From Candidatus Limnocylindrales bacterium (GTDB lineage: Bacteria > Chloroflexota > Limnocylindria > Limnocylindrales > CSP1-4), in assembly GCA_049520815.1 (NCBI GenBank), contig JBEKPL010000002.1, positions 14,654 through 78,653 of the forward strand: 64,000 nucleotides of DNA, in the 5' to 3' direction. A model generated the notes under the pieces. The model saw nothing but the letters and a program-made list of their open reading frames with translations, did no database searches and was not told the DNA's origin. The translations under genes were made by a program, and so were the position numbers. Positions 10,660-43,905 of this stretch are shown in pieces; the stretch's first letter is position 1; each line of letters opens with the position of its first letter.

Positions 10660-12809
<2,150 letters not shown>

Positions 12810-28520: not shown

Positions 28521-28642
28521 TCACAAGCTGCCGGACTGCCAAGGCTCCAAACACCGCGCGTGATGGCCTGATGTCCGTGTACTCTGGGCCTGCCGTCGTG
28601 CCGCTGCACAAGGGAGAATGAAACGAACAACCAGGGGCCACG
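28521..28642 (+). repeat. Copy 1 of a ~120-bp diverged direct repeat upstream of a plus-strand gene
   Basis: Blocks CTGCCGGACTGCCAAGGC (17/18 versus 31782-31799), CTCTGGGCC (9/9, same 36-37 nt spacing) and 'gaaacgaacaacca' versus 'gagacgaatagcca' (11/14). Confidence 0.65.
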
Positions 28643-28657
28643 ATCGAGGCTTCATCC

Positions 28658-29677
28658 TTGAGTCCGGCAGACACGCGAAATGTCGACACTCCGCTCGTGT
28701 CCGTCGTCGTTCCGGTGCACGGATCTGCCGAGTACTTGGAGACGACGCTGCGGGCGATCCAGAGCCAAACGTATAGGCCCATAGAGGTTGTGATCGTCAA
28801 CGAGCGAGCGACAGCCGATCTGAGGTCACGGGTGAGGGCCGTTCTTCCCGACGCCGTCGTCGTCGATTCGGCCGCACCCGGTCCGAGCGCGGCCAGGAAC
28901 TCAGGTCTCGCACACTCCGTCGGTCAGTTCGTCGCCTTCCTGGATTGCGATGACGTCTGGCTGCCAGGTTTCGTCTCGGCCCTGGTTGCGGAACTCGTAC
29001 GTACCCCTTCGGCTGTCTTGGTTGGGTGCACATTCATCGAGTTCGATGCCCGCGGTCCGCGGGCAATTCGTCCGTTCAGGCGAGTGCGCCTTTCACCGGA
29101 TCCCGTCCGCTCGACGTTGATCGACTATCAGGGCCCGCCGTCAGTCGTATTGTGTAGGCGAGATGTGGTGGACCGGCTCGGCGGGTGGGGCGAATATGCT
29201 GCCCTGGAGGACCGGGTCTTCTTCGGCCGCATGGCCGTCGCCGGTCCCGTAGCGCACGTCGACCAGCCTCTCGCCCTCTATCGTATCCATCCGGACAACC
29301 TGACTCGTCGCCAAGCCACAACTGATCCCAATTCGTTGTACCTCGCCGTGCGACAGGCGAACGAGGCAGTCCTGAAGGAGATCGAGGCATCTCCCCGCAA
29401 GACGCGCCTGGAGCGAACCCTGGATGCCAATGCACATCGGTCCGCGGCGCAGTTCCATCTCCTCGCGGGCAACCGACGGATGGCAGTTCGAGAGGGCCTG
29501 AAGGCTCTCCGCCTCGCGCCGACCAGCCCAGAGCCGTACTTCGTCCTACTGCGAGCGCTTCTGGGCGACCGGGTAGCGCGACGTCTTCGTAGCTCGGTCG
29601 AGCCAACGTTCTCCGAGGAGATCCGTGAGCAAGTGCGGCGAGCCAACCAGCCGACAGCGAGACCCCCTCAGCCGTGA
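28658..29677 (+). CDS. Glycosyltransferase family 2
   Basis: Motifs 'LVSVVVPVHGSAEYLETTLRAIQSQTY' and 'FLDCDD'. TTG start. Confidence 0.8.
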   Translation: MSPADTRNVDTPLVSVVVPVHGSAEYLETTLRAIQSQTYRPIEVVIVNERATADLRSRVRAVLPDAVVVDSAAPGPSAARNSGLAHSVGQFVAFLDCDDVWLPGFVSALVAELVRTPSAVLVGCTFIEFDARGPRAIRPFRRVRLSPDPVRSTLIDYQGPPSVVLCRRDVVDRLGGWGEYAALEDRVFFGRMAVAGPVAHVDQPLALYRIHPDNLTRRQATTDPNSLYLAVRQANEAVLKEIEASPRKTRLERTLDANAHRSAAQFHLLAGNRRMAVREGLKALRLAPTSPEPYFVLLRALLGDRVARRLRSSVEPTFSEEIREQVRRANQPTARPPQP

Positions 29678-29943
29678 CGGACCGACCCAATGCGCAGCTC
29701 GGATTTCGCTCCGGCGTCCCTATGCCTTCCTGACAGCCCCGAGGGCTTGCTGGCGCGACGGCGACGCATCTTACTCCGTTACTCCGTCAAGCCAAGTTCA
29801 CATACGACGACGCCGCTCTTGTCCTGTGCGCTCCGAGCGGGTGCAGTTCAGCGGTCCGCTCAGCCGATACCCACAGCGGCCTCTTTGCGGACGCTGTCAC
29901 CACAATGACCCTCGGATGCGGAATTCATAGGTCTTGCGACCCG

Positions 29944-30030
29944 GTTTCACGCGAATTGTCCACCGGAACTCGCCGGAATTGGCCGACCGTTTCACGGCTT
30001 TTGGCCACTCGTTTCACGGCTAGTGGTCAC
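29944..30030 (+). repeat. Triple terminal direct repeats GTTTCACGsnnnnTGkyCAC (IS21-type multiple transposase-binding repeats)
   Basis: gtttcacgcgaattgtccac (29944-29963), gtttcacggcttttggccac (29989-30008) and gtttcacggctagtggtcac (30011-30030). Confidence 0.75.
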
Positions 30031-30139
30031 CCCTCCTCGGAGACCACCAGCAGCGGCGGCGTGAGGTCGTCGGACACCGCACCATGGCCTCGATGTCGTC
30101 CATCGAGGAGAGATGCCGGTGCCCCGTTCCCGTTCTGCG

Positions 30140-30603
30140 ATGCGCAAGATCAGAGAAGTCCTGCGGCTTGCCCAGCCGAGGTCCCTATCGCCGACCCAGA
30201 TCGCGATCGCGGCGAGCTTACCGCGGACGACGGTCCGCAACTATCTGTCCCGCGCTGCGGCCGCCGGCCTGATCTGGCCGCTGCCGCCTGATCTCGATGA
30301 TCGCGGTCTAGAAGAGCGGCTCTTCGGGAGACCCGCTCCACCGCCGACGATCCTGGCGCGCCCCGTTCCCGACTGGGAAGAGCTCCACGCCGAGCTGCGC
30401 CGGCCCGGAGTCACCCAGGCCCTGCTATGGTCCGAGTATCGGGAGCACTATCCCGATCGCTTCGGATACACCTGTCCACCGAGACCTATCACGCCTATGC
30501 CGGCAAGCTCGATCTCGTGATGCGCCAGGACCATCACGCTGGCGAGAAGCTCTTTCTGGACTTCGCCGGCGACACGACCCCGATCGTCGACCCCGACACC
30601 GGC
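30140..30603 (+). pseudogene. istA: istA (IS21 transposase) fragment, frameshifted near 30470 and truncated after 'DPDTG'
   Basis: 'MRKIREVLRLAQPRSLSPTQIAIAASLPRTTVRNYLSRAAAAGLIWP..LLWSEYREHYPDRFGY' continues in another frame as 'YAGKLDLVMRQDHHAGEKLFLDFAGDTTPIVDPDTG'. Confidence 0.75.
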
Positions 30604-30647
30604 GGGTGCTGCTGCCAGACGAGCCTCAAGCGCGCGGCAAGTCAAGC

Positions 30648-31439
30648 TCACGGTGTCCCGCCATTGAAGACGCACCACCCCGAGTCTCCAGCCACCGTGC
30701 ATGCAAATCCGAGACTCTCCATGAGGAGAACCACATCTTCTGACGTCGTGCCAAGGGCTCGGAGTTGTCTAGGATGCAGTTCGAGCGCAACTTGTCTGAC
30801 CGCGCCACGCCGGAATACCTCGCGAGCACCATCAATGACGTGAGATTCGTACCCTTCGACGTCTATCTTCATGAGGTCCACCGTTTCGACGCCCAAAGAC
30901 GGCAAGAGGTCGTCGAGCTTGACCTGCGTGACATGCTCACGCCTAGTCGGATAACGGACGGGAGGAGTCGCCGACGATGCACCGGTGTTCACGGAAGGCA
31001 TGATGTGGAGAACAAGGACTCCGGCAACATCACCCACCGCCGCCCGCACGACATTCACGTTGGAGCAGCTATTCAGCCCGAGGTTGGCAGCTAGTACATC
31101 CGCCACCCTTTCTTGTGGCTCAACTGCCACAACACGCCCGCTGGCGCCGACGAGCGCTGAAGCCATGACCGTGAAGTATCCCTCGTTTGCGCCCACGTCG
31201 ACGAAGGTCATCCCGGCGCTGAGGTTGTCGGCTAGGCGTCGCGTCATCGACGGTTCGTACGCGCCAGTGCGAATAAGTTCTGCTCCGAAGTATGAGACTG
31301 GATCTACGAGAAACCTCCCAGCGGGGACGTGGACCTCGCGGCGCCGAACCCGCAGTAGCACCTTCACGACCGACAAAGCTGCAGCTGGCCTCATACGGAA
31401 GAGGCTGCGCTCCAATCGCGAGAGACTCTCCGGTGCCAC
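30648..31439 (-). CDS. FkbM-family SAM-dependent methyltransferase
   Basis: Motif 'FVDVGANEGYFTVMASALVGASGRVVAVEPQERVADVLAANL..NVNVVRAAVGD'. Confidence 0.8.
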   Translation of the reverse strand: MAPESLSRLERSLFRMRPAAALSVVKVLLRVRRREVHVPAGRFLVDPVSYFGAELIRTGAYEPSMTRRLADNLSAGMTFVDVGANEGYFTVMASALVGASGRVVAVEPQERVADVLAANLGLNSCSNVNVVRAAVGDVAGVLVLHIMPSVNTGASSATPPVRYPTRREHVTQVKLDDLLPSLGVETVDLMKIDVEGYESHVIDGAREVFRRGAVRQVALELHPRQLRALGTTSEDVVLLMESLGFACTVAGDSGWCVFNGGTP

Positions 31440-31513
31440 GAGCGATCCCTTCTTCCTCAGCCTAGTAAGCGGACTATCTCGAGCACGGCTAACCCCCGGT
31501 CGCTCAACGGCGG

Positions 31514-31858
31514 CTACCGGTCGGTGCCGTACCGAGAGTCCCGCTGACGTCCTGAATACACGTTGCGCTGCCGTGCGCGCGGTTCATTGCTGCCTCGCGA
31601 GCACGGGGCCAAGCGACCATCGCCCGGCGAATTGAACCAGTTGTGTCCGCCGCGTCTCACCCAGTCAACGGATCTTAGCAGATGGGCGCCGGCCAGCGAG
31701 TGTCGGAAGGCCCGATCCTCTAGATACCGGCCCCACTCCACGCCCAGATTCTCCGTCATGCTGGCCGGGAAGGTACAATAACTGCCCGACTGCCAAGGCC
31801 TAGCTACCATCCGCTGCGGTCGGATATCGATATGCTCTGGGCCGTACCATCCGCGCAT
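31514..31858 (-). CDS. Hypothetical 114-aa ORF (possibly spurious or a gene remnant)
   Basis: Co-oriented with the FkbM gene. No motif recognised. Many A/T-ending codons. Its 5' part coincides with repeat copy 2. Confidence 0.2.
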   Translation of the reverse strand: MRGWYGPEHIDIRPQRMVARPWQSGSYCTFPASMTENLGVEWGRYLEDRAFRHSLAGAHLLRSVDWVRRGGHNWFNSPGDGRLAPCSRGSNEPRARQRNVYSGRQRDSRYGTDR

Positions 31859-31897
31859 GCCGTTACAAGAGCAGAGCGAGACGAATAGCCACGAGGC
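31772..31897 (+). repeat. Copy 2 of the ~120-bp diverged direct repeat upstream of a plus-strand operon
   Basis: See copy 1. It ends about 20 nt before ATG 31916. Confidence 0.65.
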
Positions 31898-31915
31898 CAG
31901 GAATCACGGGAGACC

Positions 31916-32950
31916 ATGCTCCCATGGCGAAAGCGAAGCATGAGGGTCGCGGTCATCGGCTGCGGTCTGATCGGCACGCGCCGAGCGAAAGTCGCAGTCG
32001 ACTCGGGTGACGAGGTCGTCGTTGTTGCCGACATCTCCGCAGACCGCGCCCAAGCTGTAGCCGAGGCAACACGGTCAAAATGGACCGTGTCCTGGCCGGA
32101 GATCGTTTCTCGCGACGACATTGACGTCGTGGTCGTGTCCACATCCAACGATCTTCTCGCTGAAGCCTCGATCGCGGCACTGGAGTCGGGCAAGCACGTC
32201 TTGTGCGAGAAACCATTGGGCCGCAACGCCGCAGAAGCCACCGCGATCGTCGCAGCGGCCCAGGCGGCGGGGCGGCTACTCAAGGTCGGGTTCAACCACC
32301 GCCATCACCCGGCAATCGCCGCTGCGCGCGAGCTGGTGGGCGAAGGCGCAATTGGTGATGTTTTCGCGATCCGGGCGCTGTACGGGCACGGTGGCCGGGC
32401 GGGGTACGAGCGAGAATGGCGAGCGAACCCGGCTCGTTCGGGGGGTGGCGAGCTCCTGGACCAGGGCGTCCATATCGTGGATCTGGCGCGCTGGTTCATC
32501 GGGGAGATAGCTCAGGCCCAGGGCTACGTCGGAACATATCACTGGCCGATCCAACCGGTCGAGGACAACGCGTTCGCGCTCCTGCGCGCTAGCAGTGGTG
32601 GCATCGTGTCGTTCCACACGAGTTGGACTCAATGGAAGAACGCCTTCCGTTTCGAGGTACTCGGAACCGGCGGCTATCTTCGAATCGACGGACTTGGCGG
32701 CTCTTACGGTACCGAGCGCTTGACCCTCGCGAAGCGGAACGAGGACTCCTCGCCGCCCGTGGAGGAAACAACTTCATTCGAGGGCCCAGACCAGTCATGG
32801 CGCAGCGAGTGGCAGGAGTTCTCGACGGCGATCGGGCAGAACAGGCAACCCCTCGGCAACGGCGACGACGGTCTTGCGGCTGCGCGCATTCTCGACGCGA
32901 TCTACGAATCCGCCGCGTCGGGAAATGCCGTCGAGGTGGCTCACGCATGA
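31916..32950 (+). CDS. Gfo/Idh/MocA-family NAD(P)-dependent oxidoreductase
   Basis: 'MRVAVIGCGLIGTRRAKV' Rossmann N-terminus and 'GKHVLCEKPL'. Start is ATG 31916 or 31940. Confidence 0.85.
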   Translation: MLPWRKRSMRVAVIGCGLIGTRRAKVAVDSGDEVVVVADISADRAQAVAEATRSKWTVSWPEIVSRDDIDVVVVSTSNDLLAEASIAALESGKHVLCEKPLGRNAAEATAIVAAAQAAGRLLKVGFNHRHHPAIAAARELVGEGAIGDVFAIRALYGHGGRAGYEREWRANPARSGGGELLDQGVHIVDLARWFIGEIAQAQGYVGTYHWPIQPVEDNAFALLRASSGGIVSFHTSWTQWKNAFRFEVLGTGGYLRIDGLGGSYGTERLTLAKRNEDSSPPVEETTSFEGPDQSWRSEWQEFSTAIGQNRQPLGNGDDGLAAARILDAIYESAASGNAVEVAHA

Positions 32951-33678
32951 AGGCGATGCTGCTCGCCGCAGGACTTGGAACTCGCCTGTACCCGCTCACG
33001 GCGGATCGGCCGAAGTGCATGGTCTCCGTGGCCGGCCGCGAGGTCCTGATCCGCAATATCGACTGGCTTCGCTCGAATGGGATCCATGACCTGGTGATCA
33101 ATCTCCATCATCACGCGGAAGCGGTAGTGGACTCCATCGGTGACGGGTCGCGCCTGGGCGTGAGCGTGGCATATTCTCGCGAGCCAGAGTTGCTGGGTAC
33201 CGCCGGAGGGGTCCTGGCTGCGCGATCCCTGCTCGGGGACGAAACGTTCATCGTCGTCTACGCGGATAACCTGTTCGATGTCAGACTTCGGGCAGTGGTT
33301 GATGAGCATCGCCATTTCGGAGCGGAGGCCAGCATGCTGCTACTGGAGCGTCCGGATGTGAGCAGCAGTGGAGTGGCCGTGCTCGACGATGCCGGGTGGA
33401 TCACGGAATTCCAGGAGAAGCCCCGGCCGGGAACAGAGAGGAGCCACTGGGTGAACGCCGGCCTCTTGGTCTGCGAGCCTGAGTTGTTCGAAGTCATTCC
33501 CGGTGCAACCCCCAGCGACCTGAGCCTCGACGTCATGCCGAAGCTGGCGGAGCGTCAGCACGCGCTGCGAGGCCACCGTCTGGCACATGGCGAGCGCGTG
33601 ATGTGGATCGATACCATGGATGACCTAAGGGCGACCGAGGCAATGCTGGCAACCACAAGCGGCAGGGGTGGCCGATGA
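32947..33678 (+). CDS. hddC: Sugar-1-phosphate nucleotidylyltransferase (D-glycero-alpha-D-manno-heptose-1-P guanylyltransferase-like)
   Basis: Motif 'MKAMLLAAGLGTRLYPLTADRPKCMV'. ATGA overlap with the upstream gene. The operon context includes hddA, gmhA and gmhB. Confidence 0.75.
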   Translation: MKAMLLAAGLGTRLYPLTADRPKCMVSVAGREVLIRNIDWLRSNGIHDLVINLHHHAEAVVDSIGDGSRLGVSVAYSREPELLGTAGGVLAARSLLGDETFIVVYADNLFDVRLRAVVDEHRHFGAEASMLLLERPDVSSSGVAVLDDAGWITEFQEKPRPGTERSHWVNAGLLVCEPELFEVIPGATPSDLSLDVMPKLAERQHALRGHRLAHGERVMWIDTMDDLRATEAMLATTSGRGGR

Positions 33679-34664
33679 TCCTGACCAGGGCGCCGCTCCG
33701 CATCGCGCTCGGCGGTGGCGGCACCGATCTCCCTTCCTACTACGAGCAGCACGGCGGCTTCATTCTCAGCGCCGCCATCGACAAGTACGTGTACGTCTAC
33801 CTGAATAGGCCGGCGGCCGACGATCTCATCAGGGTCAAGTACACGCGTTACGAGGAAGTCACCACGCCCTCCGAAGTCCAGCACGATCTCGTGCGTCCCG
33901 CCCTGATCGAATTGGGAATACCGGGGAACATAGAGATCACGTCCATGGCGGACGTCCCCGCGGGAACCGGACTGGGCTCGTCGGCGACGTACCTGGTCGC
34001 GCTTCTAACCGGCCTGCATGAGTTGAAGCGCGAACGTATTCCCACACACGCACTCGCCGAAGAGGCTTGCCATATCGAGATGGACCTTGCCGGGCACGCC
34101 GTTGGCAAGCACGACCACTACATGGCGGCTTTCGGCGGCATTACGTGCCTGGAGATCGAGCGGGATGGTCGTGTCACCGTAACCCCGCTGGACATCTCCC
34201 CTACGGCAGCAGCCGAGCTTCGGCACAATGTCCTGCTCTTCTTCACGGGCATTACCAGGAGCGCCAACACCATCCTGGCGGAACAGAAGCGCGACACGGC
34301 CTCGGCCCAACCGGACGTTGTCGAGAGCCTGCACCGGACCAAGGAGTTGGGACGGCAAGTCAAGTCCGCGCTCGAAGCCGGTCGAGTCGACGAGTTCGGC
34401 GTGATCCTGCACGAACACTGGGAAAACAAGAAGCGCCGATCGGCCCTCATCAGCAATCCCGATGTCGATCGCTGGTATGGGATCGCCCGCGACTGCGGTG
34501 CCTTGGGCGGGAAGCTCGTTGGCGCGGGGGGAGGAGGGTTCCTCCTGCTCTACTGCCCGGGAACCGCAAAGGCCGCAGTGCGCGAGGCGCTTGGCCGCGA
34601 AGGGCTCCGCGAGATGCCCTACGCGTTCGACTACGACGGCGCCAAGGTGATGCTGAACGTATGA
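33675..34664 (+). CDS. hddA: GHMP kinase, D-glycero-alpha-D-manno-heptose-7-phosphate kinase-like
   Basis: 'MILTRAPLRIALGGGGTDLPSYYEQHGGFILSAAIDKYVYV' and 'PAGTGLGSSAT' (GHMP motif II). ATGA overlap. Confidence 0.8.
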   Translation: MILTRAPLRIALGGGGTDLPSYYEQHGGFILSAAIDKYVYVYLNRPAADDLIRVKYTRYEEVTTPSEVQHDLVRPALIELGIPGNIEITSMADVPAGTGLGSSATYLVALLTGLHELKRERIPTHALAEEACHIEMDLAGHAVGKHDHYMAAFGGITCLEIERDGRVTVTPLDISPTAAAELRHNVLLFFTGITRSANTILAEQKRDTASAQPDVVESLHRTKELGRQVKSALEAGRVDEFGVILHEHWENKKRRSALISNPDVDRWYGIARDCGALGGKLVGAGGGGFLLLYCPGTAKAAVREALGREGLREMPYAFDYDGAKVMLNV

Positions 34665-35800
34665 GCCTCGTCCTCGTCACCGGTGGAGCCGGCTTCATCG
34701 GGTCTCACACGGTCGACCTCCTGCTCGAGAAAGGGTATGAGGTCCGGATCATCGATTCGCTGCAGCCTCGGGTCCACCCCAGGGGCAAGCCCACGTACGT
34801 TCCGAAGGACATCGAGTTCATCCAGGGCGACGTAGCTAACCGCGCCGACATGGAACGGGCTCTCCAGGGCGTGGACTATGTGTTTCACATGGCTGCCTAC
34901 CAGGACTACCTGCCCGATTTCAGCACGTTCATCCACACCAACACCGAGTCGACTGCTCTGATCTTCGAGCTGGCGGTCTCCGATCCGGACCGTTTCCCGC
35001 TCCGCAAACTCGTCGTGGCGTCATCGCAGTCGGTGTCGGGCGAGGGCAAGTACAAGTGCAACGCTGAGGACACCATCTTCTACCCGGACCCGAGAACGCC
35101 TGATCAGCTCCAGCGCGGCGAGTGGGAGATCCCCTGTCCGACCTGCGGCTCCGCGGCTACGCCGCTCCTGATCGACGAGGCGACCTGCAGCAACCCTGGA
35201 ACCACGTACGGCGTCTCCAAGTACGCCCTCGAGCTGCTGGCTTTCAACCTGGGTCGCCGATACGGCATCGAGACCGCGGCGATGCGCTACACGTACGTCC
35301 AGGGGCCGCGCAACTCGTTCTACAACGCCTATTCGGGCATTGCGAGGCGCTTCGCCCTGCGTATCCGGGCTGGGCTTCCCCCGGTCTGCTACGAAGATGG
35401 GCTCCAGAGACGCGACTACGTGAATGTTCGGGACGTCGCCAGAGCCAACCTCATCGCCCTCGAGAACCCACTGTCGAACGGCCTGGCGTTCAACGTCGGT
35501 GGTGGCCGCGCCGTCACGGTTCTCGAGTTCGCCAGGATGATGCTCGACGCCTCGGGTAGTAACCTGGAGCCGATGGTGCCCGGCGAGTATCGGCTTGGTG
35601 ATACCCGCCACACCGTGAGTGACCTCACGAGGATGCGGTCGCTTGGCTGGGAGCCTCACACCCCGGTCGAAGACAATGTTCGCCAGTACCTCGAGTGGCT
35701 CGATACGCAGGTGGGCACGGACGAATACCTGCTGGAAGCCGAGCGGGTGATGAAGGAGATGGGAGTCGTGCGCAAGGTTGACCGCAAGGTACGACCATGA
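34661..35800 (+). CDS. NAD-dependent epimerase/dehydratase (extended SDR) with a Cys-rich insertion
   Basis: Motifs 'LVLVTGGAGFIGSHTVDLLLEKGY' and 'YGVSKYA'. The insert is 'KYKCNAEDTIFYPDPRTPDQLQRGEWEIPCPTCGS'. ATGA overlap. Confidence 0.8.
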   Translation: MSLVLVTGGAGFIGSHTVDLLLEKGYEVRIIDSLQPRVHPRGKPTYVPKDIEFIQGDVANRADMERALQGVDYVFHMAAYQDYLPDFSTFIHTNTESTALIFELAVSDPDRFPLRKLVVASSQSVSGEGKYKCNAEDTIFYPDPRTPDQLQRGEWEIPCPTCGSAATPLLIDEATCSNPGTTYGVSKYALELLAFNLGRRYGIETAAMRYTYVQGPRNSFYNAYSGIARRFALRIRAGLPPVCYEDGLQRRDYVNVRDVARANLIALENPLSNGLAFNVGGGRAVTVLEFARMMLDASGSNLEPMVPGEYRLGDTRHTVSDLTRMRSLGWEPHTPVEDNVRQYLEWLDTQVGTDEYLLEAERVMKEMGVVRKVDRKVRP

Positions 35801-35807
35801 GGACGGA

Positions 35808-36401
35808 ATGACCTACACAGACGAGTTCCTCTCCAACTCCAAGAAGATCATCGATCTTCTCGATCGAGAGGCAATCGAGCGCATCGCTTCGGAGCTCGCT
35901 GCCGTTCGAGCTCGTGGCGGTCGCCTATTCATCCTCGGGTCGGGCGGCGGCGCGGGGCATGCCTCGCATGCGGTCAACGACTTCCGCAAGATCGCCGGCA
36001 TCGAAGCGTACGCGCCCACGGACAACGTGTCCGAGCTCACCGCCCGGATCAACGACGAGGGCTGGGAGACGAGCTACTCCAACTGGCTCCGTGTAAGCCG
36101 GATCGAGGCGTCCGATGCGATCCTGATCTTCTCCGTCGGTGGCGGCGATGCCGTTCGCAGCATCAGCGTCAACCTGGTCCGATGCATCGACCTTGCTCGG
36201 GAGGTCGGGGCGACCGTTCTGGGCATCGTCGGCCGCGACGGAGGCTACACCGCTGCCGTCGGCGAAGCCGTCGTGATCGCACCCGTGGACCGCGACACCG
36301 TCACCCCGCAGACGGAGGGCCTCCAGGCGGTCATCTGGCATCTGCTGGTCTCCCATCCGGCCGTTCGTCAGAAGCCTGGGAAATGGGAGTCGGCCACTTG
36401 A
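35808..36401 (+). CDS. gmhA: SIS-domain sedoheptulose-7-phosphate isomerase
   Basis: Motifs 'GGRLFILGSGGGAGHASHAVNDFRK' and 'ILIFSVGGG'. ATG 35808 is preceded by GGACGGA. Confidence 0.8.
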   Translation: MTYTDEFLSNSKKIIDLLDREAIERIASELAAVRARGGRLFILGSGGGAGHASHAVNDFRKIAGIEAYAPTDNVSELTARINDEGWETSYSNWLRVSRIEASDAILIFSVGGGDAVRSISVNLVRCIDLAREVGATVLGIVGRDGGYTAAVGEAVVIAPVDRDTVTPQTEGLQAVIWHLLVSHPAVRQKPGKWESAT

Positions 36402-36958
36402 GCGGTCGGCCTGCGGTCTTCCTGGATCGGGACGGCGTACTGAACCAGAGCCTCATCGGTGCGGACGGCGTGCCCCGGCCACCGGCCGGCCTGGCTCAAT
36501 TCGCGCTTGTCGATGGAGCGGCCGAGGCCTGCTGCCGTCTCGGCGCGCTTGGCTTGCTGCGGATCGTGGTCACGAACCAGCCCGACGTGGCGCGAGGCAC
36601 GCAGCGACGCGAGGTCGTGGAGGCGATCCATCAACGGCTGCGAGAAAGCGTGTCGGTGGACGACATCCGGATCTGCTATCACGACGACGATGACCTCTGC
36701 GATTGCCGGAAGCCGAAGCCGGGCCTGCTGCTGTCGGCTGCGAATGATTGGGGGATCGATTTGGCAGCCAGCTTCATGATCGGCGACCGTTGGCGGGATA
36801 TCGAAGCGGGCCAGCGGGCCGGCTGTACGACGATCCTGATCGACACGCGTACGACCCAGCCTCTTGCGATCGAGCCGACGGTTCGAGTCGAATCACTTTC
36901 GAGCGCTGTAAGCTGGATCAGCGAGCGTGTCGCACGAGCGACGGGAGCAGCCAGATGA
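36383..36958 (+). CDS. gmhB: HAD-IIIA D,D-heptose-1,7-bisphosphate phosphatase
   Basis: Motifs 'AVFLDRDGVLN', 'VVTNQPDVARG', 'CDCRKPKPGLL' and 'IGDRWRDIEAG'. Start is ATG 36383 or TTG 36398 (TTGA overlap). Confidence 0.85.
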   Translation: MGVGHLSGRPAVFLDRDGVLNQSLIGADGVPRPPAGLAQFALVDGAAEACCRLGALGLLRIVVTNQPDVARGTQRREVVEAIHQRLRESVSVDDIRICYHDDDDLCDCRKPKPGLLLSAANDWGIDLAASFMIGDRWRDIEAGQRAGCTTILIDTRTTQPLAIEPTVRVESLSSAVSWISERVARATGAAR

Positions 36959-38253
36959 GGGTCTGCGTTGCCGGCCTCTGGCACCTCGGCACGATCACCG
37001 CGGCGTGCCTGGCGGCTGCCGGCCACGACGTAGTGGGTCACGATCCGGACCCGCAGAGGGTTGAGCTACTGGCGTCTGGCCGGGCACCGATCCAGGAACC
37101 TGGCCTCGACGCGCTCATCGGCGAAGGGCTCGCCAGCGGGAGGCTTCGTTTCTCCTCGGACGCGGCCGGGGCTGCCCGCGAAGCCCAGCTCGTCTGGATC
37201 AGCTACGACACCCCCGTGGACAGTTCTGATCGAGCCGATCCGGACTCGGTGGTCAAGGCCGCGACCGACTTCTTCCCCTCCCTCGGCGCAGGATCGGTCA
37301 TGCTGATCTCATCACAACTGCCGGTCGGAAGCACGCGCCAACTCATGAGATCCTTCGAGCGGCTGGGTGGGGATCGTTCCGTAGCATTCGCCTATAGTCC
37401 GGAGAACCTGAGGCTGGGTACCGCCATCGACTCGTTCACCAAGCCGGAGCGGATTGTCGTTGGCGTGGAGAACCCGAACGGTCGGGCAGTCATCACGGCT
37501 CTTCTCGAGCCTCTCGGAGCGCCGATCGAATGGATGCCTATCGAGGCGGCCGAGATGACGAAACACGCCCTGAACGTATTCCTGGCCACCTCAATCGTCT
37601 TCGCCAATGAGATCGCCGCGATCTGCGAGTCAGTCGGAACCGATGTTGCCGACGTCGTTCGCGCGTTGCGAGGCGATCCTCGCATCGGCCAGCGGGCGTA
37701 TCTCGGCTTCGGGACGGGCTATGCGGGTGGGACTCTTGGGCGCGACGTGACCTACCTGGCCGACCTGATCTCCGAGCGACACCTCGAGGCGCCGCTCTTG
37801 ACCAGCATCAGCCCGAGCAACCGGCATCAGCAGGGATGGGTGCGGCGCGCGCTGCGCTCCCAGCTGGGGGAGTTGCGCGGTCTACGGATTGGGATCTGGG
37901 GTCTTACCTACAAGCCTGGCACGGATACGCTCCGCCGGTCTGCCTCGATCGAGCTGTGTGAGTGGTTGGCGGACCGGGGCGCAATCCCAGCTGCACACGA
38001 TCCGGCCGTGCACGCCCTGCCGCCAGCCCTTGCCGGTCGCATCGACCTGCAGCCTGATGGGCTCAGCGCGGTTCGAGGCGCAGATGCTCTGGTCGTCATG
38101 ACACCGTGGCCGGAGTACCGGCTGGTCCCGCCCGACGCAGTCGTGGCTGAGCTCCGACGGCCTGTCATCGTGGACCCTGCGCGGTTCCTTGCCCTGCTGT
38201 TCGGGACCGATCCCAGGGTTCGGTATTCGGCCGTCGGATTGGCCCGAGCATGA
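36955..38253 (+). CDS. UDP-glucose/GDP-mannose dehydrogenase-family protein lacking the catalytic cysteine
   Basis: 'MRVCVAGLWHLGTITAACLAAAGHDVVGHD' and 'EMTKHALNVFLATSIVFANEIA' fit the family. However, 'GTGYAGGTLGRDVTYL' aligns to the family's 'SFGYGGYCLPKDTKQL' with Thr in place of the catalytic Cys. ATGA overlap. Confidence 0.75.
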   Translation: MRVCVAGLWHLGTITAACLAAAGHDVVGHDPDPQRVELLASGRAPIQEPGLDALIGEGLASGRLRFSSDAAGAAREAQLVWISYDTPVDSSDRADPDSVVKAATDFFPSLGAGSVMLISSQLPVGSTRQLMRSFERLGGDRSVAFAYSPENLRLGTAIDSFTKPERIVVGVENPNGRAVITALLEPLGAPIEWMPIEAAEMTKHALNVFLATSIVFANEIAAICESVGTDVADVVRALRGDPRIGQRAYLGFGTGYAGGTLGRDVTYLADLISERHLEAPLLTSISPSNRHQQGWVRRALRSQLGELRGLRIGIWGLTYKPGTDTLRRSASIELCEWLADRGAIPAAHDPAVHALPPALAGRIDLQPDGLSAVRGADALVVMTPWPEYRLVPPDAVVAELRRPVIVDPARFLALLFGTDPRVRYSAVGLARA

Positions 38254-39116
38254 CGCAGGCACTGCAGGGTCGCTCCGCGCTGATCACCGGGGCGAGCATG
38301 GGACTGGGACTGGCCATCGCTCGCGCCTACCTGGAGGCGGGCGCAAACGTAATCGTCTGTGCTCGCGACAAAGGCCCTCTTGACGACGCGCTCCGCGAAC
38401 TGGCCAGCCTGGCGAAAGAGGGCCAGATCGTGGCCGCTGAGACCGGGGACGTATCCAATCCAAGCGATGCTGATCGGCTTGTCGCGGCCAGCCTGGAGCG
38501 GGTCCCGGAGTTGCACATCCTCGTCAACAACGCCGGGGTCTACGGCCCGAAAGGGACGATCGACGAGGTCGAGTGGGAGCCGTGGGCCGAAGCGATCCGA
38601 GTCAACCTGCTGGGCTCGGTACTCATGGCTCGGGCCGTCCTCCCTCATTTCAAGGCGCACCGGTACGGCAAGATCGTCCAGTTGTCCGGTGGAGGCGCCA
38701 CGGCCCCCCTTCCTCGGATCAGCGCCTACGCGGCCTCGAAAGCAGGGGTCGTCCGGTTCGCCGAAACGTTGGCTGAAGAGGTCCGTGAGTTCGGCATCGA
38801 CGTGAACTCCATGGCGCCCGGAGCTCTCAACACACGACTCCTTGACGAAGTCCTCGAGGCCGGGCCGGAGAAGGTGGGGCGCGAGTTCTACGAGCGCGCG
38901 GCCCGCCAGGCCGCCGAGGGCGGCACATCGTTCGACCGAGGAGCTGGACTGGCCGTGTTCCTTGGGTCGTCCCTGAGTGACGGAATCACCGGTAAGCTGA
39001 TCAGCGCAGTGTGGGACCCATGGGAGACGTTGGCCGCCCATACTGCCGATCTCCAATCAAGTGACGTGTATACGCTGCGGCGCATCGTGCCCAAAGACCG
39101 TGGTTTGGTCTGGTAG
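38250..39116 (+). CDS. Classical short-chain dehydrogenase/reductase (SDR)
   Basis: Motifs 'ALITGASMGLGLAIA', 'NNAG' and 'YAASKAG'. ATGA overlap. Confidence 0.85.
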   Translation: MTQALQGRSALITGASMGLGLAIARAYLEAGANVIVCARDKGPLDDALRELASLAKEGQIVAAETGDVSNPSDADRLVAASLERVPELHILVNNAGVYGPKGTIDEVEWEPWAEAIRVNLLGSVLMARAVLPHFKAHRYGKIVQLSGGGATAPLPRISAYAASKAGVVRFAETLAEEVREFGIDVNSMAPGALNTRLLDEVLEAGPEKVGREFYERAARQAAEGGTSFDRGAGLAVFLGSSLSDGITGKLISAVWDPWETLAAHTADLQSSDVYTLRRIVPKDRGLVW

Positions 39117-39868
39117 TGGGACCCGCCGTAGGTGGAAGGCCAGGTCGAGATTTGACGACGTTGAGCGATCTGCGGGTCAAGGTGTTCGCCGATGGCGCGG
39201 ACCTCGCGGGCATGATCGAGATGCGGGCCAACCCGCTGATCCGGGGATTCACGACGAATCCCACCCTCATGCGTAAGTCGGGGGTCTCAGACTACCGAGC
39301 CTTTGCGCGGGCAGTCCTCGCCGCCATCCCGGACCGTCCGATCAGCTTCGAAGTACTGTCCGATGAGTTCGAAGTCATGCATCGACAGGCAGTCGAGCTC
39401 GCAGGCTGGGGCGCGAACGTGTTCGTGAAGATCCCTATCACGGACACGCAAGGGAGATCGAGCGCGGATCTCCTGCGTCGACTGGCTGCGGAGGGCATTC
39501 GAGTCAACGTGACCGCCATCCTGACCCTCGAGCAGGTAGCGGTAGCTGCCGAGGCTGTGTCGGCGTCCCCTGCTGCGGTCATCTCCGTCTTTGCCGGACG
39601 AATCGCGGACACCGGGCGCGATCCCGTGCCGCTGATGGAACGGGCTCTGGAGATCCTGCGGCCGCATCTGAACACCGAACTGCTCTGGGCGAGCCCACGT
39701 GAGCTTCTGAACATCCTCCAGGCGGACGAAATCGGGTGCCACATCATCACGGCCACGACCGACATCCTCAAGAAGCTCGATCTGGTCGGGAAGGATCTTT
39801 CGGAGTTCTCGCTCGAGACGGTGCAGATGTTCGTTCGCGATGCCCAGCTGGCGGGACTCGAACTCTAG
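39116..39868 (+). CDS. Transaldolase-family protein (short Fsa/TalC-like type)
   Basis: Motifs 'VFADGADLAGMIEM..IRGFTTNPTLM' and 'NVFVKIPIT' (Schiff-base Lys context). The start is uncertain; TTG 39152 or 39161 is plausible. Confidence 0.7.
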   Translation: MGPAVGGRPGRDLTTLSDLRVKVFADGADLAGMIEMRANPLIRGFTTNPTLMRKSGVSDYRAFARAVLAAIPDRPISFEVLSDEFEVMHRQAVELAGWGANVFVKIPITDTQGRSSADLLRRLAAEGIRVNVTAILTLEQVAVAAEAVSASPAAVISVFAGRIADTGRDPVPLMERALEILRPHLNTELLWASPRELLNILQADEIGCHIITATTDILKKLDLVGKDLSEFSLETVQMFVRDAQLAGLEL

Positions 39869-41046
39869 ATTGAAGGGTCTCCGAGTTCTCTCGACACCTG
39901 GGAGGCCCATCCAAGTCCGCCCGCGCGCTCGGCCACAACCGTCATCTTGTTACCGAAACGGCCGAGCACCGAGTTGCCGACTCGCCAGGACGATCGAGCC
40001 AACGGGAACAGCCCTCGCCGGCTGAGCAAGCCGAAGGCCCGTCCGGGCTCGTGGCGGTAGTACATCAGATACCGCCCATCGGCCAGCGTCCGAAATCCCA
40101 GTCCCTCGAGCTCAGCGGAGATCTCACCCGGGCGAAGCCGCATGACCACGTTGCCCGACTCCTCCTTATGCAACGCCAGACCGAGCTTCACCGCCAGCCG
40201 GGTTCCGGCGGCCCGTGCGGGCTCCGTGATCGAGACGGCCCTCCCGACCCTCGCCATCTCGGCGATCCCCTTCTCCGGATGCTCGAGGTGGTGGAGGCCA
40301 TCGTGGACGTAAACCAGGTCCACAGCAGCGTCCCCGGCAGGTAGCCGCTCGACGTCGGCAACGATCGAGAGGAGCGGGAACCCGCCACGCCGCGCTCGTT
40401 CACGGGCACGCTTGGCGGCCCCCAGCGAGATGTCGGAGGTTACCACAGCAGCGCCGCACTCCCGGAGGAACTCGGCATCCATACCTGATCCGCCGCACAC
40501 GACCAGTGCGGTCGCGCCGTCGAGTCGTCTTCCCAGCGGCGCCACCGCCCGCCGGAACTTCTCCCGCAGCAGCCACTCGTACAGCGGCGCCGTCCCGTGG
40601 GGGCGCGTCGTCTCGAACTCAGCCGCCGTCTCGCGATCGAAGTGCGCCGCCTGACGATCCTTGTGCTCGTCAGAAGTTCCGTGGCTGTGCCCATGTTCGT
40701 GGTCCAGTTCGTCCTGGTCAGCCGCAGCCCGATCGGCAATCAGAACGGGGATACCGTCCTCGATCGGATATCGCTGTCCGCAGCCATCACAGCTGGCTTC
40801 ATCCGGCCCCCAGGAGAGATGCGAACGGCACGCCGGGCACGAGAGGAGGGATTTCAGGCGCTCTATGTCATCTGGGGATTCGACGTGCGTCGCTCTGCCG
40901 TCTGTTGGCGCGGATATCACGGCGCGCACAGAGCCGGCGTCACTTCCTTCGGCGAGAGGAACGACGGGAGTTCGGCGAGCCAGGGCGAAACCCGCCGGGA
41001 TGTTGGGTAGACGGTGCGTGGTCCCAAAGCCCGCAGAATGTAGCAC
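39865..41046 (-). CDS. Zn-ribbon (Trm112-like) plus SAM-dependent methyltransferase, paralogue of the C-terminal half of 26186-28402
   Basis: 'CPACRSHL..CDGCGQRYPIEDGIPVL' and 'LVVCGGSGMDAEFL..VYVHDGLHHLEHP'. The C-terminal 'GRFGNKMTVVAER' is shared with the fusion protein. The start may be internal. Confidence 0.8.
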   Translation of the reverse strand: MLHSAGFGTTHRLPNIPAGFALARRTPVVPLAEGSDAGSVRAVISAPTDGRATHVESPDDIERLKSLLSCPACRSHLSWGPDEASCDGCGQRYPIEDGIPVLIADRAAADQDELDHEHGHSHGTSDEHKDRQAAHFDRETAAEFETTRPHGTAPLYEWLLREKFRRAVAPLGRRLDGATALVVCGGSGMDAEFLRECGAAVVTSDISLGAAKRARERARRGGFPLLSIVADVERLPAGDAAVDLVYVHDGLHHLEHPEKGIAEMARVGRAVSITEPARAAGTRLAVKLGLALHKEESGNVVMRLRPGEISAELEGLGFRTLADGRYLMYYRHEPGRAFGLLSRRGLFPLARSSWRVGNSVLGRFGNKMTVVAERAGGLGWASQVSRELGDPSI

Positions 41047-41181
41047 GACAGACGACGCGTCGTCCCGGTCCCCGCGAGCTTCGCCAGGACCATCCCGCCA
41101 CCCCTGAGAGGCACTCCCGGAGGCGCTGGCGGTAGGCCGTTGCCGCTATTCTGACTCGAGCCCGACGCTTGGAGACGCATC

Positions 41182-42381
41182 GTGATCGAACGCATCAGGG
41201 CTGGACTCGAACGCACCCGGACCAGGATCAGACCCATCTGGATCGGCCACCGTAAGCTAACGATCGCCGTTGGCGCGATCGCGATCGTGGCGATCGTCGG
41301 CACTGGGCTGCTGGTATGGCTCAGACCGGCGCAGGCGTCTCCAGCGGCTAGCCCTTCGTCGTCGCCGTCCCCGACCGCCTCTCCTACCCCGTCTCCTACC
41401 GCCTCACCAACGGCCTCACCGACCCCTTCACCCTCTCCCACCGAAGCGGGCCCCACGGATCTGCCCAGCGGATGGGAGTACAGCGATCTTGACGGAGTGG
41501 CGGCTCCGGCCAACCTCGCCCACCGCCTGCCGTTGGCGATCTCGATCGGCGACAACGCCATCGCCCGACCGCAGTCGGGCTTCTCTTCGGCCTCGATCGT
41601 CTACCAGTCGTATGAGGAATACGGCGAAGACCGCTACATGATGATCTTCCAGGAAGGAACCGCATCCGATATCGGCGGCATGCGGAGCGGTCGACCCTAC
41701 TTCGTGCGGTGGGCAGCCGAGTACAAGGCGCTGTACGGCCATGACGGGGGCGACACCAAGGTTCGCAGGGTGACGATCCCCGCGATGGCCAGCTACTTCT
41801 ACAACATGGACCCTGGCGCCGGCGGAGCTTGCCCCTACCACCGCATCACGACCAGAGTGGCTCCCCACAACGAGTACACGAACACGGCGGACCTCATCCG
41901 CTGCGCGGCGAGCAAGGGCTACCCGGCGACTTACCAGGGCCCACCCTCCCGACCCTTCGTCGCCGACATCCCGGCGGCCGAACGGCCCGAGACCGAGGCG
42001 GTCTTCGTCCCCTATCGCACCGTCTCCGTGAGTTACCAGTACTACCCGGAGAACGACTCGTACGTTCGCATCCTCGACGGGAAGCTTCAGATCGATCCGG
42101 CCAACAACCAGCAAGTGATCGCCCGCAACATCGTCGTCATGTTCCAGACGGTCACCAACGACTACATGGACTACAACATACAGAGAATCGCCATCGGCAA
42201 TGTCGGCTCGGGCAAGGCCATCGTCTTCAAGGAAGGCAAGGCGACCACCGGCACCTGGAAGAAGGATTCGGACTCGGCCCTGACCCACTATTACGACGAC
42301 TCGGGCAGGGAGATCCCGTTCGTTCGCGGCGAGATCTTCATACAGAGCGTCCCGCCCGGAACGGCCGTCACCTACAAATAG
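41182..42381 (+). CDS. DUF3048 (YerB-like) membrane-anchored protein, paralogue 2
   Basis: 'PLAISIGDNAIARPQSGFSSASIVYQ..GEDRYMMIFQ..RSGRPYFVRWAAEY'. The C-terminal 'GSGKAIVFKEGKATTGTWKK..IPFVRGEIFIQSVPPGTAVTYK' is nearly identical to paralogue 1. Confidence 0.8.
   Translation: MIERIRAGLERTRTRIRPIWIGHRKLTIAVGAIAIVAIVGTGLLVWLRPAQASPAASPSSSPSPTASPTPSPTASPTASPTPSPSPTEAGPTDLPSGWEYSDLDGVAAPANLAHRLPLAISIGDNAIARPQSGFSSASIVYQSYEEYGEDRYMMIFQEGTASDIGGMRSGRPYFVRWAAEYKALYGHDGGDTKVRRVTIPAMASYFYNMDPGAGGACPYHRITTRVAPHNEYTNTADLIRCAASKGYPATYQGPPSRPFVADIPAAERPETEAVFVPYRTVSVSYQYYPENDSYVRILDGKLQIDPANNQQVIARNIVVMFQTVTNDYMDYNIQRIAIGNVGSGKAIVFKEGKATTGTWKKDSDSALTHYYDDSGREIPFVRGEIFIQSVPPGTAVTYK
41347..41443 (+). repeat. 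Ser/Pro/Thr/Ala-rich low-complexity coding repeat (linker of DUF3048 paralogue 2)
   Basis: It encodes 'SPSSSPSPTASPTPSPTASPTASPTPSPSPT'. Confidence 0.8.
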
Positions 42382-42393
42382 GCACCCGCCGGG

Positions 42394-43905
42394 TCACGCC
42401 TGGCAGGCCGCCGGCACGACCCCCGGGAGCCCGTAGTAGCTGCTCTCCGAGCCGAACAACGCCACCGACAGGTTGGCGACCAGCGCCATGTCCAGCCGGC
42501 TGGTCCACGTCCCGCCCGTGGTGGACGTGTCCGGATGGTAGCTGTAGGGCGGACCAAGCACGCAGTTGGATATCGAGGTCACGTGCTGGGCGGCCGACAC
42601 GTAGTCGCGGGCGGTCGCGAGCGGAAAGTCCGTGGCGACGACCTTGCCGGCCAGCGAGATAAGGTTGCCCACATTCGGCAGGATGGACGGACTCGCCACC
42701 TTCCGCTCCAGAGCCACGAGCAGGGCCTGCTGGCGAGCTGCTCGCTGGTAATCACTGCCGCCCGCTCCTTCACGAGAGCGGACGTACAGCATGGCCAAAG
42801 AGCCGTTGAGGTGGACGCGGCCGACGCCCATCTCTATTCCGGTCGACGGGTCGTCGATCGCCCGCTCGTTGTAGATGTCCACGCCCCCGATCGCGTTGAT
42901 CATGCTGGCGAGGCCTCCCAGGTCGAGTGCGGCGTAGTAGTCGATGGGCAGGCCGACCAGGAAACTGACCTCCTTCTTCAGGGTGATCATCGGCGGATCC
43001 GGAGACTTGTAGTAGCCGTTGATCAGCTTGTTGACCAGCTCATTGAGCTTCAACCCGGACTCGGCCCAGCCGCCGTAGTACAGGTCGAAGGCGGAGGTGT
43101 CGCGGGGCACGCTGATCATGGTCACCTTGCCCGTCCCGGTGTCCATGCTCACAACCATCATGGTATCCGTGATGGCGTTTTGGAAGGCTCGGCCGGGCAT
43201 GTTGTCCAGGCCCACGACCAGGAAGGTGATCCGATTGGGATTCTTCGTTCGAGCGGGCGTAGGGTCGGCGCTCCGCTCGACGGTGGCTGCGGGATGGAAC
43301 GCCGACAGGTCGAGCGGCGTGGGAATCGGGGTGGCGGTGGGGCTGGGGCTGGGGGAGGACGAGGTGCCCGCAGCGAAGATGTTGTTGTTGGCCGCGATGT
43401 CGAGATCCGCCTGATGTACGAGCCATGCGTCGGCGGCCACGTAGGTGTGCATCCCGACGATGGCCACGAGGAGGGCGGCAACGACACCCGCCTCCAGGGG
43501 GCGGAAGCGGAAGCGCCGGGCCCGCGGCGCGGAGAGGAAGGCGTGGGCGGTCGACGCGACGCGCAAGGCCCCGGCCAGGACGACGAGAACGGCCACGGTC
43601 AGGGCATAGCTCTCGTCGAGCATGCTCGCGCCAACCCACCACAGCCCGTGGGTGAGCTGGACCACGACCCACACCGTCAGAACCAGGGCTGGCAGAGCGA
43701 AGATGGCGGCCCAGGCCCGGCGACCCAGGAACAGCTGGCCCAGGCCCGGCCAGAGGAAGGACAGAGCGGCCGCGATCAGGGGCGAGCGACGACGTACCGC
43801 CGGCTCAGCGGTGGAGTCGGGCTCGTGGGCGGAGCCGGGCTCGCCGGCCACCGGCTCAGCGCCGAAGCCGGCCTCCTCTGCGGTGTCTCGAGTCTCGTTC
43901 CCCAT
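42394..43905 (-). CDS. LCP (LytR-CpsA-Psr) family glycopolymer-to-peptidoglycan ligase
   Basis: N-terminal TM helices followed by 'RITFLVVGLDNMPGR..TDTMMVVSMDTGTGKVTMISVPRDT'. Confidence 0.85.
   Translation of the reverse strand: MGNETRDTAEEAGFGAEPVAGEPGSAHEPDSTAEPAVRRRSPLIAAALSFLWPGLGQLFLGRRAWAAIFALPALVLTVWVVVQLTHGLWWVGASMLDESYALTVAVLVVLAGALRVASTAHAFLSAPRARRFRFRPLEAGVVAALLVAIVGMHTYVAADAWLVHQADLDIAANNNIFAAGTSSSPSPSPTATPIPTPLDLSAFHPAATVERSADPTPARTKNPNRITFLVVGLDNMPGRAFQNAITDTMMVVSMDTGTGKVTMISVPRDTSAFDLYYGGWAESGLKLNELVNKLINGYYKSPDPPMITLKKEVSFLVGLPIDYYAALDLGGLASMINAIGGVDIYNERAIDDPSTGIEMGVGRVHLNGSLAMLYVRSREGAGGSDYQRAARQQALLVALERKVASPSILPNVGNLISLAGKVVATDFPLATARDYVSAAQHVTSISNCVLGPPYSYHPDTSTTGGTWTSRLDMALVANLSVALFGSESSYYGLPGVVPAACQA

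Follow-up and report, generated by a model that had tools for sequence, protein, structure and literature searches.

In a 64,000-nucleotide stretch of the genome of a Candidatus Limnocylindrales bacterium (Chloroflexota; assembly GCA_049520815.1, contig JBEKPL010000002.1, positions 14,654 to 78,653), referred to here as the window, the plus-strand gene at 36955-38253 encodes a 432-aa homolog of UDP-glucose dehydrogenase (UGDH) in which Thr takes the place of the catalytic Cys. We call this Cys-less UGDH-family protein UGDH(T). We found that the Cys-to-Thr change is a clade signature and not a lesion, and that members of the clade almost always lie within a conserved nine-gene cassette. The gene families of this cassette match those of the lincosamide octose pathway (LmbR, LmbN, LmbP, LmbK, LmbO, LmbM, LmbL, and LmbZ), with a short-chain dehydrogenase/reductase (SDR) replacing the aminotransferase.

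In the window, UGDH(T) is the seventh of nine tightly coupled plus-strand genes (31916-39868), and all eight of its partner families are present in this one translationally coupled operon. The first gene encodes a Gfo/Idh/MocA oxidoreductase with an LmbZ-type role (31916-32950; PF01408/PF22725/PF02894), which is 46-50% identical to cassette copies. It is followed by a sugar-1-phosphate nucleotidyltransferase with an LmbO-type role (32947-33678; PF00483), which at 30-35% identity has diverged further than the window's other cassette genes, and by a GHMP-family sugar kinase with an LmbP-type role (33675-34664; PF00288/PF08544; 48-50% identical). The fourth gene is an extended-SDR NAD-dependent epimerase/dehydratase (34661-35800; PF01370) with only ~26% identity to the standard cassette epimerase. 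Next come a SIS-domain sugar-phosphate isomerase with an LmbN-type role (35808-36401, with an alternative TTG start at 35778; PF13580; 53-61% identical), whose nearest PDB entries are phosphoheptose isomerases (E ~1e-8), and a HAD-IIIA sugar-bisphosphate phosphatase with an LmbK-type role (36383-36958; PF13242/PF00702; 49-53% identical). The start of UGDH(T) overlaps the stop of this HAD gene (ATGA), and its own stop overlaps the start of the downstream SDR by 4 nt, again as ATGA. That SDR, the obligate partner of UGDH(T), is a classical one of 288 aa (38250-39116; PF00106, 165.5 bits) and is 63-68% identical to cassette SDRs. The operon ends with a small TalC/FSA-type transaldolase with an LmbR-type role (39116-39868, with an alternative start at 39152; PF00923, 146 bits; 63-65% identical), which exceeds the cut-off of TIGR02134 (326.6 bits against 281.95).

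A remodeled active site on a canonical fold

UGDH(T) is a full three-domain UDP-glucose/GDP-mannose dehydrogenase homolog with the canonical UGDH fold. It exceeds the cut-offs of all three Pfam domains (PF03721, 122.8 bits against 27; PF00984, 78.0 against 25.4; PF03720, 72.4 against 30) and of the TIGR03026 subfamily model (284.2 against 189.8), in agreement with the family assignment made in the original prediction, a reading of the window's sequence without database searches. An AlphaFold2 (AF2) model built with 55 relatives as input reached a pLDDT of 93.7, and its N-terminal domain was confidently modeled as a Rossmann fold. Foldseek matched this model to BceC (2y0c) and to 3gg2 with a TM-score of 0.92 (E ~1e-38). 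Overall, the canonical enzymes (UgdG, 4a7p; the Porphyromonas gingivalis enzyme, 3gg2; BceC, 2y0c; and human UGDH) share the three-domain fold at TM 0.89-0.92 and 31-33% identity. They also share with UGDH(T) the Lys/Asn helix, the Asp of C-x-x-K-D, the equivalent of human Glu161, and the nucleoside diphosphate (NDP)-binding K-P-x-T-D motif. UGDH(T) nevertheless failed every NCBIfam equivalog for a specific uronate-forming enzyme, namely TuaD (235 bits, cut-off 700), AglM (201, 670), WecC (111, 459), Ugd (82, 757), and TviB (15, 592).

The alignments confirm the replacement of the nucleophile. With phmmer, UGDH(T) matched the solved UDP-glucose dehydrogenases 4a7p, 3gg2, and 2y0e (E 1e-68 to 1e-62), and its GYAGGTLGRD aligned on their GYGGSCFPKD, which places Thr260 (codon ACT, 37732-37734) at the nucleophile position and no Cys there, as had been predicted. 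The Lys of this motif is Arg263 (37741-37743), and the Asp is retained as Asp264 (37744-37746). The protein has exactly four Cys residues, at positions 4, 18, 224, and 335. Because canonical 4a7p also has Cys at the positions aligned with Cys18 and Cys224, these two are not substitute nucleophiles.

The remodeling extends well beyond the nucleophile, a point that the original prediction did not note. It had described an N-terminal Rossmann motif and a central helix retaining Lys and Asn. The helix residues are indeed kept (Lys203, 37561-37563; Asn207, 37573-37575), but the Rossmann GxGxxG motif is non-canonical and reads GLWHLG (36973-36990; G7-L-W9-H10-L-G12), with Trp9 (36979-36981) in place of the second Gly and His10 (36982-36984) in place of the Tyr of GxGYVG. 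Likewise, the canonical KST is SSQ in the clade, and PEFLxEG is PENLRLG. To relate these changes to function, we mapped human UGDH positions onto the clade through the family motifs, with residue roles taken from the literature (PMC3129169). Six conserved active-site residues have been described in the human enzyme: T131, E161, K220, N224, C276, and D280 (PMC3129169). Besides C276, which corresponds to Thr260, four of the other five are kept (E161 as Glu150, 37402-37404; K220 as Lys203; N224 as Asn207; D280 as Asp264), and T131 is replaced by Gln121 (37315-37317). Further replacements are Glu165 by Leu154 (37414-37416), Tyr14 by His10, Lys129 by Ser, and Lys279 by Arg263. In human UGDH, Y14, E161, and E165 govern how the coenzyme binds and leaves in the course of the two-fold oxidation, and K129 stabilizes Glu161 in its "out" conformation (PMC3129169). 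The clade thus replaces two of the three gating residues (Y14 and E165), and K129 as well.

Could UGDH(T) still form a uronate without the Cys, through a Thr ester or a gem-diol? The human C276A variant does very slowly yield UDP-glucuronic acid (UDP-GlcUA) with 2 NADH per substrate (PMC3129169), which gives this idea some footing. However, the C276A change slows the enzyme 1.8x10^4-fold, and with C276S the reaction halts at a stable ester (PMC3129169). With its nucleophile Cys absent, UGDH(T) has no access to the canonical thiohemiacetal/thioester chemistry, as the original prediction had argued. Moreover, the residues that gate coenzyme exchange are also replaced, every UDP-Glc and UDP-ManNAc dehydrogenase equivalog was failed (TuaD, for example, at 235 of 700 bits), and the conserved gene context described below is that of a higher-sugar pathway and not of a uronate pathway. 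We therefore consider continued uronate formation very unlikely. UGDH(T) belongs to a separate and ancient branch within the UDP-glucose/GDP-mannose dehydrogenase superfamily, one that has abandoned the covalent two-step (four-electron) route to uronic acids.

The substitution is not an isolated oddity but the mark of a large, conserved clade that spans phyla. Thr was present at the nucleophile site in 121/121 sequences (UGDH(T) and its 120 best homologs, 51-92% identical), and the motif A-G-G-T-L-x-R-D around it was invariant in the 120 homologs. We also searched 1.84 billion cluster representatives with a profile and took the top 150 clusters (50% identity), all scoring at least 391 bits; 141 of the 147 representatives that aligned at this site have Thr. 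The companion substitutions are similarly fixed. The GLWHLG motif is invariant in an alignment of 55 sequences (A1); among the cluster representatives, Trp9 is present in 114/135, Gln121 in 146/149, and Leu154 in 140. Asp30 (37042-37044), the acid that binds the NAD ribose, is invariant in A1 together with Thr86 and the NDP-binding K-P-G-T-D, and position 30 is Asp or Glu in 133/142 cluster representatives. Two representatives, P0126 and P0216, were considered as fusions of Thr-type and Cys-type domains and rejected; they contain only canonical Cys motifs (two copies and one copy, respectively) and fall outside the Thr clade.

A missing Cys, taken alone, could also reflect a sequencing error or a roleless pseudo-enzyme. 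The conservation data rule this out, and we attach almost no probability to it: at least 566 species genomes share the fixed Thr260, ACT is two base changes away from any Cys codon, 74 positions are invariant in A1, and the gene has an unbroken reading frame with translational coupling to both of its neighbors. A non-catalytic protein, one of the options left by the original prediction, is unlikely given the near-invariance of Lys203, Asn207, Asp264, Glu150, Asp30, and the NDP-binding motifs.

The signature GLWHLG ... SSQ ... PENLRLG ... AGGTLxRD separates the clade from true uronate-forming enzymes. Thousands of clade proteins are currently annotated as "UDP-glucose 6-dehydrogenase" or "nucleotide sugar dehydrogenase", and this labeling is almost certainly wrong for them. 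Our literature search found no described Cys-less UGDH clade and no described nine-gene cassette of this kind.

A nine-gene cassette across phyla

We determined how the clade is distributed by scanning one genome per GTDB species, which gave at least 566 carriers; the best 80 matches were taken further. Among these 80 are Chloroflexota, Acidobacteriota, Nitrospirota, Myxococcota, several Proteobacteria including Legionella, Planctomycetota, Verrucomicrobiota, Chlorobiaceae, Actinomycetota, and the archaeon Candidatus Methanoperedens. The closest of them to UGDH(T) is a Chloroflexi metagenome-assembled genome (MAG) from a fen, at 93% identity. The window itself is of peat metagenome origin, as DNA sequencing runs show; none of the RNA runs searched for the gene held it.

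On the contigs of distant homologs, the cassette sits amid polysaccharide genes, and its standard order is epimerase, UGDH(T), SDR, Gfo/Idh/MocA oxidoreductase, GHMP kinase, nucleotidyltransferase, SIS isomerase, HAD phosphatase, and transaldolase. We counted partners by tblastn of the cassette proteins against the loci. The SDR lies directly 3' of UGDH(T) in 74/76 loci. When only the 39 loci flanked by at least 6.5 kb on either side were considered, the SDR was found in all 39, Gfo/Idh/MocA in 37, the kinase in 36, the epimerase and the transaldolase in 35 each, the nucleotidyltransferase and the SIS isomerase in 34 each, and the HAD phosphatase in 33. All eight partners were present in 30 of these 39 loci, and the gene order was identical in 24. 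Moreover, in five independent cluster representatives the two neighbors are naturally fused into one chain, either as SDR-UGDH(T) (P0123 and P0130) or as UGDH(T)-SDR (P0129, P0195, and P0243). The existence of fusions in both domain orders argues for direct functional or physical coupling of UGDH(T) and the SDR.

The cassette also occurs in archaea and in cultured bacteria. Three MAGs of the archaeal methanotroph lineage Candidatus Methanoperedens (L013, L015, and L021) carry the complete bacterial-type cassette in the same order, with UGDH(T) proteins ~48-52% identical to that of the window or those of the reference cassettes, which implies inter-domain horizontal transfer. Rhizobium jaguaris CCGE525 (L087) carries a full colinear cassette on plasmid pRCCGE525c, and Rhizobium sp. 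CB3060 carries the cassette as well. In Lawsonia intracellularis, it lies on plasmid 3 (L086; NC_008014.1, ~14.5-23 kb), where the UGDH(T) gene bears no annotation beyond "nucleotide sugar dehydrogenase". A gene for a lysylphosphatidylglycerol-synthase-TM-like membrane protein splits this copy, and on its flanks are genes for very large hypothetical proteins and for a GH99-like protein. An LPG_synthase_TM gene also adjoins the cassette of another locus, L003.

Not all loci follow the standard arrangement. The window and its two closest relatives (L006 and L007) have a rearranged gene order, a different and longer extended-SDR epimerase, and a divergent nucleotidyltransferase, and this lineage may therefore differ in its end product or in the nucleotide used for activation. 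In a few genomes, the rest of the cassette is missing within 10 kb of UGDH(T): L053, L076, and L055 have the SDR, and in L061 the gene is alone. The UGDH(T)-SDR pair may also act on a substrate supplied from elsewhere. At L089 (ENA contig, 11701-12756), which belongs to the GLGHLG subtype, no transaldolase was found within the stretch read, and the vicinity holds genes for a DeoC/LacD-family aldolase and a radical-SAM enzyme. These genes may provide an alternative route to build or modify a higher sugar.

Predicted chemistry on an octose side chain

What sugar would this cassette make? The original prediction set the gene in a heptose operon, and the likeness is real: the pathway to GDP-D-glycero-alpha-D-manno-heptose (GmhA, HddA, GmhB, and HddC) uses the same four families as the early cassette enzymes, in the same logical order. 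GDP-heptose loci, however, are not known to carry a dedicated transaldolase, and the cassette adds to this pathway exactly such an enzyme, along with the Cys-less UGDH homolog, the SDR, and the Gfo/Idh/MocA oxidoreductase. Furthermore, the early enzymes of the window fall far short of the heptose models. The SIS isomerase scored 27-39 bits against GmhA models (cut-offs 209-320), the kinase 173.6 against HddA (600), the phosphatase 119.5 against GmhB PRK08942 (178) and 72.6 against the alpha-specific model (250), and the nucleotidyltransferase 68.4 against the NCBIfam HddC model (300). Because these four scores are so far under the cut-offs and a dedicated transaldolase is the hallmark of the LmbR route (PMC5854111, PMC4351081), this is probably not a heptose operon. 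The original prediction had also asked whether Thr is conserved in orthologs linked to heptose operons; the Thr is conserved, while the cassette to which it is linked is probably not one for heptose.

A heptose-based role can still be framed. The early enzymes could convert sedoheptulose 7-phosphate to an NDP-glycero-manno-heptose with the transaldolase merely boosting the precursor, and UGDH(T) and the SDR could form a side-chain epimerase or modifier in which UGDH(T) oxidizes the C6-OH, or the C7-OH to an aldehyde, and the SDR re-reduces it from the other face. In keeping with this, GmhA, HddA, GmhB, and HddC are the best named relatives of the isomerase, kinase, phosphatase, and nucleotidyltransferase; the window epimerase partially matches the ADP-heptose 6-epimerase model (TIGR02197, 100.6 bits, under the cut-off); and a dehydrogenase-reductase fusion is what an oxidize-then-reduce epimerase pair would be expected to look like. 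Nevertheless, the shortfalls against the heptose models count against this scheme, as does the retention of a dedicated transaldolase, which the octose pathway has, in 35 of the 39 fully flanked loci, and the scheme leaves the conserved Gfo/Idh/MocA enzyme without an obvious job. We therefore consider it unlikely.

The lincosamide sugar genes offer a closer match. They comprise LmbK (phosphatase), LmbL (dehydrogenase), LmbM (epimerase), LmbN (isomerase), LmbZ (oxidoreductase), LmbP (kinase), LmbO (nucleotidyltransferase), and LmbR (transaldolase) (PMC4351081 Table 2; PMC12945683 Table 1). LmbR makes octulose 8-phosphate from ribose 5-phosphate and a C3 donor and thereby commits the pathway to an eight-carbon sugar (PMC5854111), and GDP-octose is then turned into GDP-lincosamide by LmbM, LmbL, CcbZ, and CcbS (PMC12945683). 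LmbL and CcbL, the UGDH-family "C8 dehydrogenase" of lincomycin and celesticetin biosynthesis, work with LmbZ/CcbZ, belong to the same superfamily as UGDH(T), are similar in size (CcbL has 436 aa), and have the same partner families: transaldolase, SIS, GHMP, HAD, nucleotidyltransferase, GalE-like epimerase, and Gfo/Idh/MocA. Their NDP-octose substrate has a secondary alcohol at C6, where a Cys-dependent second oxidation is impossible. In 2015, the best non-lincosamide relatives of CcbK, CcbZ, CcbO, and CcbN were found in Acidobacteria and Sorangium, and that of CcbM in Methanosarcina (S1 Document, PMC4351081). These relatives support an octose reading, because the cassette is common in Acidobacteriota and in Myxococcota, the phylum of Sorangium, and is present in Candidatus Methanoperedens. 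The two systems differ in setting, as LmbL and CcbL belong to antibiotic clusters, whereas the UGDH(T) cassette lies in surface-polysaccharide loci and is very widely distributed, in many bacterial phyla and in Candidatus Methanoperedens. They also differ in one enzyme. The lincosamide pathway has the aminotransferase LmbS, and the UGDH(T) cassette instead has an SDR, often fused, which predicts a hydroxy rather than an amino sugar. Consistent with this difference, neither the window operon nor the annotated genes in those gene tables that were read for other loci included an aminotransferase, its place being taken by an adh_short SDR, and a scan for an aminotransferase among the ORFs inserted in variant cassettes found only a GT2 glycosyltransferase and a methyltransferase.

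We therefore propose, with confidence and doubt in about equal measure, that UGDH(T) catalyzes a two-electron oxidation at C6 of an NDP-octose, as one step toward an 8-deoxy-octose for the cell surface. Going by gene content, the cassette transaldolase would form octulose 8-phosphate, and the SIS isomerase, GHMP kinase, HAD phosphatase, and nucleotidyltransferase would convert it stepwise to NDP-octose. UGDH(T) would then use NAD+ to oxidize the side-chain C6-OH, a secondary alcohol, to the 6-ketone. As a ketone cannot be oxidized further, no Cys would be needed for this step, and since octose C6, which takes the position of C6 in a hexose, is a secondary alcohol, both the nucleophile Cys and the mid-reaction exchange of coenzyme would be dispensable, the two features that the clade has lost. 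The alcohol-dehydrogenase half of the active site that such an oxidation would use is kept, in the form of Lys203, Asn207, Asp264, Glu150, and the NAD-ribose acid Asp30. The replacement of Tyr14 and Glu165 and the presence of Trp9 would fit an enzyme that can complete its reaction without exchanging the coenzyme partway and that may hold NAD tightly. The Gfo/Idh/MocA enzyme would process the 6-keto intermediate, with loss of the 8-OH and re-reduction, as in the "6,8-dehydration" of lincosamide biosynthesis, which LmbL and LmbZ/CcbZ reportedly carry out together (Wang et al., PNAS 2020). The adjacent or fused SDR would reduce the remaining 6-ketone, at the carbon that LmbS aminates in the lincomycin route. 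The product would be an NDP-8-deoxy-octose, possibly further epimerized and O-methylated, and the glycosyltransferases, Wzy-like polymerase, flippase, and LytR-CpsA-Psr (LCP) ligase encoded nearby would place it in a cell-surface glycopolymer. Of the options in the original prediction, arrest at the aldehyde among them, gene context favors two-electron chemistry on the side chain, here that of a higher-carbon sugar.

The unusual Rossmann motif raises a different possibility, namely that UGDH(T) does not turn over NAD and serves as a dehydratase, with Lys203, Asp264, and Thr260 as acid/base groups, or as a substrate holder, leaving the hydride transfers to the Gfo/Idh/MocA and SDR enzymes. In 114/135 cluster representatives, Trp stands at the position of the second Gly of GxGxxG, the counterparts of human E165 and Y14, which position the nicotinamide and gate the coenzyme, are replaced, and the two other oxidoreductases are always present. 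However, the ribose-binding Asp30 and Thr86 are invariant in A1, position 30 is acidic in nearly all cluster representatives, and the whole N-terminal domain is confidently modeled as a Rossmann fold. The exceptions at position 9 are also instructive. Nine cluster representatives keep Gly (GLGHLG) and 11 have another residue, and nearly all 20 share the SSQ/E/L/GGT active-site signature; the neighborhoods of two of them, L089 and the P0139 contig, are the same as those of Trp9 members. Because these variants share both signature and neighborhood, Trp9 is not essential to function. We consider a role without redox turnover to be quite improbable.

Several points weigh against the octose proposal. 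The substrate, the carbon attacked, the use of NAD, the division of labor among the three oxidoreductases, and the product are all inferred. One would normally expect a Trp in place of the second Gly of GxGxxG to interfere with binding of the pyrophosphate, and NAD use is accordingly not certain. Our literature search found no linear 8-deoxy-octose in a bacterial polysaccharide, and the epimerase and nucleotidyltransferase of the window differ from the standard cassette versions. The likeness to LmbL and CcbL is one of gene-family descriptions. LmbL/CcbL is not an obvious close member of the clade, since the best non-lincosamide match of CcbL in the 2015 table, from Thermodesulfatator indicus, is just 33% identical (PMC4351081 supplement). 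Nor did Lmb names appear among the 240 listed homologs or in a cluster look-up of high-G+C representatives; Streptomyces was absent from the best 80 of at least 566 species-genome matches, and a tblastn search of plasmids returned only canonical Streptomyces UGDHs at ~35% identity.

We suggest only tentatively, with rather more doubt than conviction, that the cassette as a whole is a mobile nine-gene unit for an NDP-linked linear C8 sugar of surface glycans, probably an 8-deoxy-octose that is the hydroxy counterpart of lincosamine. UGDH(T), the SDR, and Gfo/Idh/MocA would then form a multi-enzyme side-chain dehydratase/reductase, and the lincomycin/celesticetin sugar pathway would be a specialized offshoot, with the cassette as its evolutionary source. 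If this is true, the clade carries a reaction type that is unassigned in the UGDH superfamily outside one antibiotic pathway. It would also mean that linear C8 sugars are not confined to lincosamide antibiotics and are widespread on the surfaces of environmental bacteria and archaea, for example in Chloroflexota, Acidobacteriota, and Myxococcota of peat, soil, and groundwater, as well as in the plasmid-borne glycan locus of a pig pathogen. For now, UGDH(T) would best be filed as an LmbL-like two-electron NDP-sugar side-chain dehydrogenase, whose predicted octose-type surface sugar is undescribed. The clade would further represent a natural experiment in which a covalent four-electron dehydrogenase was converted to a simple two-electron enzyme.

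The surrounding glycan island

The window operon lies within a larger island of glycan genes. Upstream, polysaccharide assembly genes extend over 19767-31439. Alongside GT4 glycosyltransferases, they include a flippase (21108-22448), a Wzy-like (O-antigen-ligase-like) membrane domain joined in one protein to a SAM methyltransferase (22996-25122), a further epimerase (25197-26189), a GT4-methyltransferase fusion (26165-28402), a GT2 glycosyltransferase (28658-29677), and a minus-strand FkbM methyltransferase (30648-31439). Downstream, envelope genes (39865-43905) encode a methyltransferase (39865-41046, minus strand), a DUF3048 protein (41182-42381, plus strand), and an LCP glycopolymer ligase (42394-43905, minus strand). 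The G+C content of the island (21000-41000) is 62-65%, compared with 66-72% in the flanks, where housekeeping genes such as those for fatty-acid and threonine biosynthesis lie; the lower value is consistent with horizontal acquisition. The two methyltransferase fusions, both unusual, and the two stand-alone methyltransferases together suggest that the glycan is heavily O-methylated. Methyltransferase-GT2 fusions border the cassette in L003 too.

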